DNA from: Eledone cirrhosa
Lineage: Eukaryota
Assembly: GCA_964016885.1 (NCBI GenBank)
Contig: OZ024740.1
Coordinates: 276,272,001 to 276,336,000 of the forward strand
Length of the DNA: 64,000 nt
Direction of reading: 5' to 3'
Shown here: piece after piece, positions 241 through 64,000 of the stretch
Numbering within the stretch: position 1 is the first letter of the stretch
Layout: every line of letters starts with the position of its first letter
Notes under the pieces: model-generated
What the model saw: only the letters and a program-made list of their open reading frames with translations
What the model was told of the DNA's origin: nothing
The model's database searches: none
Translations under genes and position numbers: made by a program

Positions 241-420
241 GTACGTTATTCCGGGTTGAATCGGAGGTAACCACAGTAAGTAAGGTACTCAATACATTGC
301 AGAGTATAAAAGTTTTAATATAGATGAGATTCTACAGGACTAGAACTGTTTCATTCTTTAGAAATCATCTAAAGAATGAAACAGTTCTAGTCCTGTAGAA
401 TCTCATCTATATTAAAACTT
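241..420 (-). mobile_element. fold-back element in (TA)n: 53-bp perfect arms (310-362/368-420) plus one-sided tail (241-309)
   Basis: Direct reverse-complement match with 5-nt loop AATCA. The minus strand carries a truncated HHR (GAUGA..GAAACAGUU) at the turn. Confidence 0.8.
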
Positions 421-949
421 ATATATATATATATATATATATATATATATATATATATATATACATTTTGAAATGTTTGTTCTATATATATATATATATA
501 TATATATATATATATAAAACAAACATTTCAAAATGTCCTATATTTGAAGATCTAGTTACCTTAATAGTGTAGGAGTATGTATATGCATATATATGTGTAA
601 TTATGTAGACATGAGACCATGTCTCAGTTTTAATGATGATCCCATGAAGTTTTTAAGTTATTAGTTTTTTATTTTATTACACTGTTGAAACAGATCTACA
701 AAAATGCTTCTAAATCTGAATTTTCGTGACTGATAATTAAGACTTTATGTATAGGATTGTCAGTATTTACGTTCTTTTTGTATTTGGTATGTTAACTAAC
801 TAACATTACGATTAAAATTTGATATTAGTAGTAAATTATGATATTCTTGGAATCTAAACTAAAACAGTCTGTATGCTATCTATACAGGCTGTGATATCAT
901 TGTTATACTAATGCCTTCAGCATGCTTGCATGGGATTGAGAGTATTTAA

Positions 950-1159
950 CCCTTTAGTGTTCAAACCGGCCAGAATTCTCTACCTCTTTCTGTTGAAACT
1001 GGCTGTAACTGGTCGCTCAAACTGATAAAGTATTGTTCTAAAAATAAATACTTTCAAAATCTCATAGATTTGATATTATGTGAAAATAATTATCTGAGGT
1101 AAAGCCTTTACCATGAAAATATAATAGTATATATATAGAGTAATGTGAATGCTAAAGGG
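950..1159. mobile_element. piggyBac-like MITE; copies at 25778-26142 and 56928-57138
   Basis: TTAA|CCCTTTAG...CTAAAGGG|TTAA. Internal sequence shared by the three copies. Confidence 0.8.
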
Positions 1160-1866
1160 TTAAGGTGACTGACTGGGTAGAAGTACAGGACAGTTTATAC
1201 AGCACACCCCTTAATTATATGTCTGAAGCACACTTCTCAGTTATGAACAGATGTTTGAAGACTTGAATTTACTTACTGAAGATTTGGATTTACTTCTTAT
1301 ATATAATTGTTTCTACTTTTGGCACAAGGCCAGCAATTATGCCAGTGCATTACTGGTACTTTATTTTATCGACCCTGTAAGGATGAAAGGTAAAGTTAAC
1401 ATATATAATATTATATATTTATCATAAACAAAATTGTCCTTGCAGGCAAGGAAAACAGAAGTTGAATGATGGTGATGATGATGATGATGATAATAACTTT
1501 ATGTTCTTATTTTAACCCATTTTTTACCATATTTTTAATTAAAGACACGGCCCATAATTTTCAAAGCATTTTGAATATATTCAAGAATTTGGAGAGATTT
1601 AGTTAAAATAACTGTCTTGTTATTAAGCTGGTATTTAGGGCATAACTTAAAAAAGATTCTTACATGAAACTATTATGTAAGGGTTTAGATAAATGTAAAC
1701 AGTTAAAAAAAATAGCTTACTATTGTAAAACCAGGGTTGGTTTCAGATAGTTTGGTATCAATAAGATTAATGTATATGAAATGATTTGATATACGAGAGA
1801 CATATATCCCTTTATACTCACTTTGTTTAATTTCCTTTATCAAATGTTCTTATTGTTTAATCCTAG

Positions 1867-1904
1867 ACACCAGATGAGAGACAGTGGCACAGCAAGGCCA
1901 CTTG
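1867..1904 (+). other. candidate small upstream exon
   Basis: ttattgtttaatcctAG| ... cttG|GTATGG flanking a short GC-richer island. Splice signals only. Confidence 0.25.
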
Positions 1905-3489
1905 GTATGGGTCTACGATTTTGAAGGGAGGGCAGGTGGTTATTTTTCTCAAGTTCTGTTTCGTTTTTACTCTATTCTGTTTCATGTAAGCATATCAGGT
2001 ATGCTACAAATCCATGTATATACCCATAATCTATGACTAAGTCATATATATTGGGCAATGATTACTAAAATACTTAATGAGCAGTTTGAAATGGCGCATA
2101 CATTTCACATAAGCATTGTATGGCTATGGTCCTGGATTAGATCTAATACAACATTAGATGCAATACAACCTTAAATGTAAGGCATTTTAGCCATGACCAC
2201 TAACACAATCCTTTTTTAAATTATTATTCTAGGATTACATTACCCAATAGTCCACCATAAAAAGTATGATAGTTTTAAAAATTATAATCCTTCTCAACGG
2301 CCTCACTAGCCCGATTAACACATTCTCAATAATAAACCGCTTCATACCATTCCTAAGAACTTTTTATTCTATTCTTTGTAAACAGTGTATCAAATTTATA
2401 CATGGCTACTGAAATAAATGATTTAAAAAAAAAATGTTTTTTTTTTAATGATGAGACAGTATGTGTGATATAAGGGTTATTTAGGTGATATAAGGATTAT
2501 TTAGGTGCTATTTTTCAAATATAAGTATTCATCATTGGCTTATCTTTTATTAATTTTTTTGTTTTTACTTTACGTATTAATAGTTTCTGATTTAGGCACA
2601 AGACCAGCTATTTTGGGGAGAGGAGAAAGTTGACTAATAAAGCCTAGTGTGTTACTGGTACTTTATTTTATTGACCCCATAAGGATGAAAGGCAAAGCTA
2701 ACTTCTGTTGGATTTGAACTCAGAACATAAAGGGATATAACTATATGCCACAAAGCATGTCCGACGCTCTACCGAGACTGTCAATCCACCGCGCTTACTT
2801 TGCATACAAATACCATCAGTATTAAATCATCGACTAGTACGGAAGTCACTCGCAATCGACTGACTTTGTTGTGTGAACCATGCATTGCTAGGGATTTTAA
2901 GTGCGTATAAAGTCATAAGCAGACCCAGACCCCCTTTCAATCATCCCTCACATGATCGAATGGAACATTCAGGATGTGGGGAAGTGGGAGCTGGACCGTA
3001 AGAGGGTTGCACCAGAAATGGGCTGCTTACTTTCTTTATCGACTGAAAGAAAACAAAGTGGACCTCAGTGGAATTTAAATTCTTTGAATTCTGAACGTGG
3101 AGACACAGAATAAATATTCGATACTCTACCGACTTTCCCGAATCCAGCACTACAAAATAACTTAATGAAGGAGGCAACAAATAGACAAATAGAATAAACT
3201 AAAACATAGTTTTCTCTGTTTCGTTAATTATATGTGACATTAATTATGTGACAGAAAAGCCACTTGCTCCCTCTCGCTTTTTATCTCAGTCTTTCACAAG
3301 TTTTCTTCCCCTCTCTTATTGTTTGTTAGCCGCTATTCTCTCTCTCTCCCTCACACTCATGTCTCTCCTCCTTTATCTTCAATGACTTTTCTCTCTCTCC
3401 CTCTCTCTCTCCTTCACATGACTCCCTTGTTTATCTTCAGTGACTTCTCTCTCGCTCTCTCTCTCTCTCTCATGTCTCTCCTCCTCCTT

Positions 3490-61967: not shown

Positions 61968-62003
61968 TCTTCTGATGAAGAACTAGTGTCTGAAACGTTA
62001 AGA
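61968..62003 (+). ncRNA. minimal hammerhead ribozyme (family H4)
   Basis: UCUU CUGAUGA A GAAC UAGU GUCU GAAA C GUU AAGA, with palindromic AACGUU. Confidence 0.72.
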
Positions 62004-63278
62004 CCCTCTTCCTGCTATTTCAAGCGTTAAACTAATATATTCCTTCCATATACTGTACTGTTTTTGTTGTTATTTCTGTTTACCTTTTACATATATATGT
62101 ATATATACACACATATATATAAATGTCTTGTGTATCCCAGTTTTTAGAAGCAGTGCACTATATTCTTGTGTGTCAAAATAGGGATGACATCAGGAAGGAC
62201 AGCTGATGGTAAAACATTGCTTCAAACCATCCTACCCAACCCATGCCTGCATGGAAAGTTGGATGTAAAGATGATGATGATAATCATCATGATATGTGTG
62301 GGAATGCATGCACACGTATTTGTATGTTTGCTTGTCAGAGATCTCCCCTCCCATTCCCCACTCTTCACCTGATATATCTCTCCAGTCATGGCACACACCC
62401 ATGACATACACCCACACTCCATCCATGTTTATAGGTTAGAGTGGGCTCTTTATTTGAGTCAATGACAGACAACTGCTCTAGTGTTGGTACCACAAAATGC
62501 ATCTATTACACTATGTAAGGTGGTGGGCGATAAGAAGAGCAACCCACTGTAGAAACATTGTCAAAGGGTCAAATGGATTATCTAGTTGAGGCACAACAAC
62601 CTCTCTAGACTTGGTTTACTACATGATAAACACACCCAGTTCACACTGTAAAATGATTGGTGATAAGAAGGGCATCCAGTCATAGAGAACATGGCAAAGA
62701 AAGGGTTAGGAGGATTCTTCAGTTGTGCCATAGACATGACAACCTCCTTGGTGTTGGTAATCTACAGGATAAATGTTCCCAGTACATGCTGTAAAGTAGG
62801 TAGTGATAGAAAGGGCATCCAGTCATATAAAACCTGCCGAACAAAAGGTTGGGAGGACTCTTTAGTTTTGTCAAGGACATAGTTTCTCTAGAGTATGTGT
62901 TATGATAAAATGCACTCGGTAGGGCATGGGATCGTATGTTGGGCCCATGTTCCATGAGGAGGTCAGTGGCTCCACTTGAATACTGATTTGGTCTGTGATG
63001 ACGTGCTCGACCGTTGCTAGCAGAGAAATTGTAAGCTAAACAATAATGATAATGATGATGATTTACCAGTAATACAATGTGGTTAATTCAATCACTCAAA
63101 TCCTAATCTCAGTGCCTCCAAAAAATGTTATATATACTTGTGTGTGTATCATCATCATCATCAGCATATATATATATATAGTTGTAATATATGGAAGGTA
63201 ATATCCGTAGTGGTAGAGCGCTCAGTCCATGGGACGAGTTAGGTAGAAGGGGTTACACGATAGTTAGTTCACCATACT

Positions 63279-63314
63279 GAGAACAATTGTTTCACCTTAG
63301 CGGATCCTCAGCTC
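63279..63314 (-). ncRNA. minimal hammerhead ribozyme in PLE 3' region
   Basis: GAG CUGAGGA U CC GCUAA GG U GAAA CAAUU GUU CUC. Stem I GAG/CUC, palindromic stem III AACAAUUGUU, weak stem II. Confidence 0.7.
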
Positions 63315-63483
63315 GTAATGGATATGGTTATACGGAACAGGAAGGAGAACCGTATGAACGTGCATGAGCAGAAATGTTCACTTCACATAGGCAATACTAA
63401 ATTGCGTGCGAGAGGTGTAAGGGAGATAACTGCGAAAGCCCGAACATTTCTAGTTGATAAAAAAATTAGGATGTTGTTGTAAT

Positions 63484-63933
63484 TCAATCCGGAGCTTTGT
63501 AGTTATGTAAGAGGTGTTACCAGACATGTGGACAACGTGTGAATAATTCATTTCTCGAGTTTAGGCAATCACTATTGTGTAATCTCTTTAGAATATTTAT
63601 TTGTTCATCAATACATAGTCCACAGGACAGATTGCCCCTTGTGTATGGCTTGGACTTATTGATGGCTTTCCATTGAATGGAGTAGTCTATACTTCAGTCC
63701 TTGAGGGACCATACGTGGCTCGCGAGTTTCGTGGATGAACGTCTGTCCGGGTACCTAATGGTCGAGTGGTGGTTCAGGAAGTATTCCTTAAATCGGCCCT
63801 CCGCCATACCCACATAGGATTTGACCTGTGGTTGATTTGGTCGGTTGGAAGTGACCACAGCTTCATAAACTACAGCAGGTGTGTTGCATTGCTGTTGAAG
63901 GGGACAAGCTTCGGGCTTACGACAAGAGCACCT
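63484..63933 (-). pseudogene. Penelope-like element GIY-YIG endonuclease domain (Naiad-like), degenerate
   Basis: Hand translation: RCSCRKPEACPLQQQCNTPAVVYEAVV...KSYVGMAEGRFKEYFLNHHSTIRYP...TKLASHVWSLKD*SIDYSIQWKAI...CGLCIDEQ...LNSRNELFTRCPH. Shows a Cys-rich linker, VVY/YVG (GIY-YIG), CxxC and LNxRxE motifs. Premature stops at 63694 and 63517. Confidence 0.88.
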
Positions 63934-64000
63934 GGTGGAGTGTTGTTGTTAGAGCTGTTGGTGATGTGGGCCTTCGTGTTCTTAGTGCAGGAGGATCCTA

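Follow-up and report, generated by a model that had tools for sequence, protein, structure and literature searches.

A 64,000-nt stretch of the Eledone cirrhosa genome (contig OZ024740.1, G000:C1:276272001-276336000; assembly of 3.0 Gb in 1,796 contigs), hereafter the window, contains hammerhead ribozyme motifs in short islands among TA repeats. These islands are very probably the hammerhead-bearing 3' ends of nine families of Penelope-like elements (PLEs) encoding a reverse transcriptase (RT) and a GIY-YIG endonuclease (EN), left behind in TA repeats by insertions that started at the 3' end and either ended early or folded back. The arrangement itself is already known, including in a Hydra element of Octopus (PMC8557442). 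An earlier sequence-only reading of the window had described about 15 hammerhead motifs and ascribed them to dedicated non-coding elements mobilised by PLEs. The link to PLEs was borne out, whereas the dedicated class was not, because longer copies reach coding sequence and the 5' ends are scattered; the islands are variably 5'-truncated, often inverted 3' ends of coding PLEs.

The motifs listed by that reading are real hammerhead-shaped motifs. Our strict descriptor of the type I hammerhead comprised CUGANGA, a stem II of at least 2 bp, GAAA, UH, and a stem I of at least 3 bp. It returned 10 matches in the window (cores 7921-, 8878-, 11356+, 15193+, 15857-, 16049+, 16434-, 24593+, 61972+, and 63311-), each at one of the 16 coordinates listed earlier. 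In the shuffling control that the sequence-only reading had proposed, 60 block-wise dinucleotide shuffles each gave a mean of 0.17 matches with 300-nt blocks and 0.12 with 2,000-nt blocks (maximum 2), and the reversed window gave one match. The window is AT-rich and full of TA microsatellites, and the bare heptamer CTGANGA already occurs about 19 times in shuffled sequence compared with 39 times in the window, a roughly twofold difference. However, once structure is required, the counts are 10 versus 0.1–0.2 in the window, 42 versus 1.1 in 570 kb of sampled sequence, and 73,562 versus 74 genome-wide, so that chance matches in AT-rich repetitive DNA are hardly conceivable as the source of these motifs. 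Rfam gave no matches in the window at gathering thresholds, so no hammerhead family was recognised, and among the matches listed in an E-value scan (150 of 257) there were only microRNA models on microsatellites; a general repeat search was dominated by TA arrays. The suggestion that the system is invisible to standard annotation agrees with the Rfam result but was overstated, since Penelope-like families do appear among the repeats annotated for Octopus vulgaris (PMC13282606).

All 16 coordinates carry a motif or a recognisable relic of one. The CUGANGA...GAAA...UH core is present at 12 of them, namely the ten strict matches plus 22563 and 58895. The six sites outside the strict set include a pair with a U4C core (18731-/18812+), one with a U4A+A6U core (35850-), and three that are damaged by comparison with sister copies: the break at 12818+ lies inside stem II and GAAA is missing, the 3' strand of stem I is gone at 22563+, and stem I at 58895+ bears a substitution that the sister copies shown do not have. 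Site 11356 was doubtful at first; its family, H, has an 8-bp stem I and a stem II of ~60 nt, the latter partly deleted here. Intact cores and stems are kept in many copies, as host-domesticated regulatory ribozymes would require, but the copy-by-copy decay resembles that of neutral repeats (deletions at 11356, 12818, and 22563) and the families are young and high in copy number, which makes domestication very unlikely. With the site next to the GIY-YIG sequence set aside, 14 of the 15 listed sites lie in TA-bounded islands of 150–482 bp, 12818 being the exception. The islands had been called unique, which they are not: first-look candidates number 266–4,539 per family, and no family is single-copy. 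The estimate of at least six unrelated families was conservative, as nine families occur at the listed sites and two more at unlisted positions (241–420 and 10450–10655). The figure of one motif per 4 kb holds for the window with damaged copies included, and the window has about twice the density of the sampled stretches (one per 14 kb).

In all nine listed-site families, longer copies contain RT and/or GIY-YIG coding sequence upstream. Both RT and EN were found upstream of the 3' repeat in families P, B, C, D, E, F, G, and J, and EN alone in A and H. The parent loci are L013 and L100 for family P, L109 and L230 for C, L259, L263, and L264 for D, L269 for E, L142 for F, and L154 for G; full partial tandems of G occur in L232 and L233. 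Family B shows a pseudo-long terminal repeat (pLTR), RT, EN, a 1.2-kb untranslated region (UTR), and the hammerhead in L095 and L098, and a tandem in L102. In family J, RT-EN is continuous across five loci (including L284, L287, and L291), and EN lies 1.4–1.5 kb upstream in A (L093) and H (L219). Another locus, L096, was considered as the coding partner of family D but proved to be a different element and was replaced by the three loci given above. At least 120 relatives were found at 36–50% identity.

Six families (P, A, B, E, H, and J) look like Hydra-type PLEs, judged by motifs and likeness rather than by a tree. Of the two families read for the Hydra RT motifs defined in PMC8557442, B has RWK and DKT, and P has DKT, its RWK being unreadable in an interrupted copy. 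The Hydra CxCX5C linker and the CxxC...E...N...CxH tail of the EN are present in P, B, H, and J, the tail alone in A, and the parent of family E matched the Hydra type by tblastn. Families C, D, F, and G have an RT with YVDD or YIDD, a cysteine linker, and a GIY-YIG domain with CxxC and histidines (G also has DKG and GxKF), and are putatively canonical C-terminal-EN PLEs.

The copies share their 3' ends and differ in their 5' ends. All 12 loci of family P end within a few bases of one point with TA repeats next to it, and families A–H have the same kind of fixed 3' end by (TA)n or (CA)n, or run on into a shared tail. The tails of families A, B, H, and P (e.g., window 16140-16200 and 63200-63235) have a similar ACTC...GAGTGCTC-like motif near their 3' ends, possibly an RT recognition hairpin. 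For the 5' ends, we surveyed 149 unselected copies of seven families from loci not chosen for the family in question; family A was left out because subfamily divergence masks its 5' ends. Of these copies, 91% were shorter than 450 nt and 7% extended 500 nt upstream, and the 5' ends were scattered with none fixed. We also considered whether copies begin at the cleavage site, but only six of the 149 start within 6 nt of it, and neighbouring bins of equal width hold 7, 3, 10, and 1. Head-to-head inverted pairs are common, with five pairs among 42 sampled matches in a scripted count and another recognised by eye (L019). A quarter of the sampled motifs are in such pairs, which would form double-stranded RNA if read through. 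Partial tandems of the PLE type occur in L095, L098, L102, L232, and L233, and inverted 5'-truncated copies in L013, L100, and the window pairs of families B and F.

The sequence thus shows fixed 3' ends, scattered 5' ends, copies in inverted and tandem arrangement, parents with coding sequence, and compensatory pairing in stem II. We consider it highly probable that the islands arose by target-primed reverse transcription into TA arrays, which terminated early or folded back. From known PLE biology, the endonuclease would nick a TA array and the freed 3'-OH would prime reverse transcription 24–260 nt downstream of the predicted cleavage site; most reactions would stop within 450 nt or fold back. 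Its position close to the 3' end of the element would explain why the hammerhead travels with these copies. If the ribozyme works at all, it would do so in tandem master copies, as a dimer through its palindromic stem III, and lone and head-to-head copies, which would be unable to dimerise in cis, are likely passengers. The features of the window are as follows.

241–420, unstranded: inverted palindromic pair of a PLE-like 3' end, family I, hammerhead cut at the inversion point; unlisted earlier (intact copies elsewhere have a 4-bp stem III and an 8-nt loop)
7822–7989, minus strand: family A 3' stump, intact hammerhead, core 7921, stem I of 8 bp, long stem II with a C.C mismatch
8695–8960, minus strand: family C 3' stump with a short fold-back, intact hammerhead, core 8878; parent with RT and GIY-YIG
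10450–10655, unstranded: family J inverted pair, both cores damaged, family core CAGAAGA (U4A); parent apparently Hydra-type; unlisted earlier
11091–11477, plus strand: family H 3' stump, core 11356, internal deletion in the unusually long (~60 nt) stem II
12654–12845, unstranded: inverted pair of family A copies with a break in stem II, core 12818, GAAA absent
15077–15303, plus strand: family D 3' stump, minimal hammerhead, core 15193
15756–16237, unstranded: family B head-to-head inverted pair, hammerheads 15857(-) and 16049(+); RT-EN parent apparently Hydra-type
16338–16500, minus strand: family A 3' stump, intact hammerhead, core 16434
18584–19000, unstranded: family F near-perfect inverted pair, U4C cores 18731(-) and 18812(+), tail extension on the right arm
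22441–22640, plus strand: older relative of family B (77% identity), core 22563, 3' strand of stem I deleted
24467–24709, plus strand: family D 3' stump, minimal hammerhead, core 24593
33622–33820, plus strand: family C fragment with tail, beginning downstream of the hammerhead
35555–35866, minus strand: family G 3' stump, core 35850 with the family-wide CAGUUGA (U4A, A6U); full-length RT-EN parent in partial tandems
58864–59013, plus strand: family E 3' stump, core 58895, damaged stem I; parent apparently Hydra-type, and an ORF-less (open reading frame-less) derivative known for the family
61820–62100, plus strand: family D 3' stump, minimal hammerhead, core 61972, perfect ACGU palindrome
63181–64000, minus strand: family P, 3' end of an apparently Hydra-type PLE, GIY-YIG 63930-63487 with stops, core 63311, then (TA)n

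The GIY-YIG homology in the last of these stops at 63487, 176 nt before the 63311 core, in agreement with the ~170 nt read from the sequence earlier. Beyond the window, this family P element continues with RT, followed by a 3' copy in inverted orientation, which also bears a hammerhead, and by TA repeats. Elsewhere in the window, a ~9.6-kb array of a 45-bp GT-rich unit (42999-52564), in which several frames stay open for more than 3,000 codons, is likely a minisatellite. Short repeats like short interspersed nuclear elements (SINEs) occur in many copies. Long interspersed nuclear element (LINE) fragments lie at 8882-10003 (RVT_1 match, E 1e-16, at 8882-10000), 21570-22010, and 34232-35140, putatively with RTE-like 3' ends. 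The sequences at 28044-28554 and 31790-31950 may be pieces of Tc1/mariner transposons, which they resemble.

An association with (TA)n, which the sequence-only reading had described as targeting, was evident outside the window as well: 27 of 37 sampled matches had (TA)5 no more than 250 nt downstream, compared with 21% of random positions. The elements might still be PLE stumps whose TA arrays were made by their own RT at insertion or expanded later. TA runs do lie nearer on the downstream side (within 250 nt in 73% of cases, versus 46% upstream), and the 3' end of each family falls at a TA-like step of its own tail. On the other hand, non-inverted 5'-truncated copies (11356, 35850, 58895, and 61972) are flanked on both sides by TA runs, different families crowd into the same TA tracts, and a (TA)n preference is listed for most Hydra families (PMC8557442). 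We therefore regard an origin of the TA arrays at or after insertion as unlikely.

Less likely still is that most islands are dedicated short non-autonomous elements, similar to retrozymes or SINEs, that make use of PLE proteins and multiply via self-cleaved or circular RNAs. Such elements have precedents (PMC7229834; bioRxiv 10.64898/2026.07.22.740005), and ORF-less derivatives do occur elsewhere in this genome as a minority. Family E includes an ORF-less unit of ~2.3 kb net, running from hammerhead to hammerhead in direct repeats (L267, L268, and L277), with a longest stop-free frame of 83 codons; the 150-bp family E stump of the window could come from a coding or an ORF-less master. In addition, two loci (L026:1-2431 and L093:26-2413; G000 C4 and C8) contain a 592-bp ORF-less tandem with a U3-A8 hammerhead and a palindromic stem III, whose units are 98–100% identical, with a head-to-head inversion and a TA end. 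Judged from its sequence, this tandem is a very young non-LTR retrozyme. Against a non-autonomous origin of most islands, there was no fixed 5' end or unit length in the 149 surveyed copies, six of which begin 6 nt or less from the cleavage site; head-to-tail tandems are absent from the window sites, and at least one copy in each of the nine families reaches coding sequence. For the window sites, this explanation is largely refuted, and the retrozyme idea holds for part of the genome but not for the listed sites as a class.

Three other observations concern hammerhead sequences elsewhere in the genome. At L277:5411-7689, a family E copy starts at unit position 286 and stops at position 292 in the following unit; it spans exactly one unit, the length expected from a circular or tandem template. 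Another family of U3-A8 hammerheads, TA-bounded and inverted and with the stem III ACCGGU, was seen at L018:2173-3186, L031:228, L188:3600, and L214:5647 and 9647; no coding partner was seen in the two loci checked. AT-rich satellite units in L030 (G000:C7:30000001-30010000) show a weak hammerhead-like U3-A8 pattern, which may be chance or a decayed retrozyme array; this locus holds 15 of 27 U3-A8 matches, and they were not counted as ribozymes.

Covariation, the check named earlier for the stems, was found in family A. Among 21 distinct variants, eight of ten stem II pairs change on both sides, with 37 double-change cells versus 15.9 after shuffling (0/500 shuffles reach this number), and 91.8% of cells are paired, compared with 85.5% in shuffled and 40–54% in slid controls. 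RNAalifold recovered stem II but not stem I. Stem III is self-complementary in the type I motifs. Families A, B, and E and clusters in L101, L147, and L024, which are otherwise dissimilar Hydra-type sequences, share a C.C mismatch at step four of stem II, possibly a tertiary or protein contact.

Several results weigh against the interpretation of the islands as hammerhead-bearing 3' ends of coding PLEs. Pfam gave no match for the Hydra-type proteins or the window GIY-YIG piece, and sub-threshold GIY-YIG scores in families F and G; the coding link for A and for H comes from a single locus each. The family E ORF-less unit implies that some stumps may stem from non-autonomous masters. In family A, pair-type counts did not exceed the shuffle, two of five covariation measures were not above control, and the shuffle ignores relatedness among the variants. 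Monomer folding of the window motifs gave z scores from -3.25 to +1.37 relative to shuffles, with only family B below -2, and the lowest-energy structure of two family J copies was not the hammerhead. Unremarkable monomer folding may be expected because the motifs are thought to act as dimers (PMC4209133; PMC6765202).

The motifs are extremely numerous, as had been proposed. In a sample of 57 stretches of 10 kb (570 kb) at hand-picked round-number positions, the 42 strict matches, a few of which look spurious, compare with none in the reversed sequence and correspond to 74 per Mb (bootstrap 51–100), or by extrapolation ~2.2 × 10⁵ (1.5–3.0 × 10⁵) canonical motifs per genome. Genome-wide counts are of a similar order: the pattern CTGAHGA-N20-38-GAAATATRTATA had 73,562 exact matches, the control count of 74 coming from the reversed pattern, and a looser geometry had 155,994 versus 35,504 for its control. 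The strict descriptor misses motifs whose stem III is long or whose stem II is very long, as well as variant cores; a wider scan of the sample added 14 matches with variants at position 4 (0–1 in shuffles), 12 of them family J, and a loose position-4 pattern was uninformative as it counted the same sites repeatedly. All examined loci together contain 237 strict matches, which group into 25 sequence clusters, 15 of them with at least two members, but these loci overlap and were chosen by family, so the numbers are not frequencies. Published counts are ~2,000-9,000 minimal hammerheads per genome (PMC4209133); PMC7229834 gives more than 6,000 motifs for Acropora and as many as 120,000 retrozymes for axolotl, whose genome is about ten times larger. 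The matches here, at least 73,562 for one subtype, thus exceed the published numbers of minimal hammerheads, although the descriptors differ; the density comparison is incomplete because no published count for the Schistosoma SM-alpha hammerhead was found. The scale is new. A repeat class of the order of 10⁵ copies entirely escapes Rfam and canonical descriptors.

Three families depart from the canonical core. For family G, a 35-mer with CAGTTGA has 2,047 exact copies (control 0); departures from it affect position 4 in 48 copies and position 6 in 19, and none has the canonical core. A relative of G at 74–78% identity has the same core with another loop, in few copies. In family J, a 32-mer has 18,037 exact copies, and CAGAAGA is present in 96 of the first 100 matches listed; by inspection, its fold comprises a 4-bp stem I with a 7-bp distal helix, a 3-bp stem II, and a 4–5-bp stem III. 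Family F has 3,268 copies, with 69 U4C and 31 canonical cores among the first 100 matches listed. The U4C core had seemed fixed in F (22/22 examined copies), which was misleading because those copies were picked by likeness to the window. The variant cores of G, J, and F retain C3, G5, G8, A9, and G12-A14. The canonical core is therefore not required for amplification, because three lineages were amplified with a changed position 4, one of them also with a changed position 6. The U4A and U4A+A6U cores were not found in the literature covered, which included neither the survey of Lunse et al. (2017), the likeliest place for such variants to be listed, nor Figure 5 and the supplementary material of PMC3088659. 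Among other variants, U4C has been described in a viroid, where in vitro activity is lower, and A6C in a phage (PMC3088659, PMC7151607), and the U3-A8 core in Schistosoma PLEs (PMC4209133). The family-wide non-canonical cores (U4A in J, U4A+A6U in G, and a U4C subfamily in F) appear to be new.

Hammerheads and a (TA)n preference have been published for Hydra-clade PLEs, including Hydra-1_Obim of Octopus bimaculoides (Craig et al. 2021, PMC8557442), the only relevant paper found on cephalopod hammerheads in a literature search whose coverage excluded the supplements of bioRxiv 10.64898/2026.07.22.740005, which may list further invertebrate families. Our Hydra-type families share with that clade the C-terminal GIY-YIG, the RWK/DKT/CxCX5C/CxxC-CxH motifs, the 3' hammerhead, insertion in (TA)n, inverted 5'-truncated copies, and tail extension, and the family P protein resembles the printed Hydra-1_Obim protein by eye. 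In contrast, E. cirrhosa has at least six Hydra-type families, compared with one Octopus family of few copies; the cores in the supplement table of PMC8557442 are all CUGANGA, whereas family J has CAGAAGA; and A, B, E, and H have long 3' UTRs (1–1.6 kb). As in metazoan PLE minimal hammerheads (Cervera and de la Pena 2014, PMC4209133), the motifs are type I with an extra nucleotide after A9 and a palindromic stem III, mostly single and in truncated PLEs, with opposite-strand pairs 100-700 bp apart and a U3-A8 variant; the results and discussion of that paper mention neither U4A or U4A+A6U cores nor a C.C mismatch four steps into stem II. Families C, D, F, and G share RT-linker-EN features with canonical C-terminal-EN PLEs (Neptune, Nematis, Penelope/Poseidon), from which F and G differ in their variant cores. 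The L026 tandem and the family E derivative resemble non-LTR retrozymes (PMC7229834; bioRxiv 10.64898/2026.07.22.740005) in being ORF-less, hammerhead-bearing, and apparently PLE-derived, whereas the truncated copies in the window stand singly or head to head and do not form ORF-less tandems. What is new here is the scale, the family diversity, and the family-wide altered cores; the kind of system itself is known.

We tentatively propose, as a possibility somewhat short of probable, that this is, with about a quarter of a million motifs, the densest hammerhead population among the published ones compared, in which PLEs keep the fold while position 4 is free to vary (CAGAAGA in at least 18,000 and CAGUUGA in 2,000 copies, in unrelated lineages), the variants being active or the fold serving as a recognition structure. 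The role of the hammerhead in PLE retrotransposition has been stated to be unresolved (PMC4209133, PMC8557442). If the proposal is true, the J and G cores would be either new natural active variants or evidence of a fold used for recognition rather than as a fast ribozyme, and the role of PLE hammerheads would become directly testable. The genome of E. cirrhosa would offer a natural experiment on this role: its young and successful families, which have near-intact masters, differ in whether their cores are canonical or altered, and family F shows both states.

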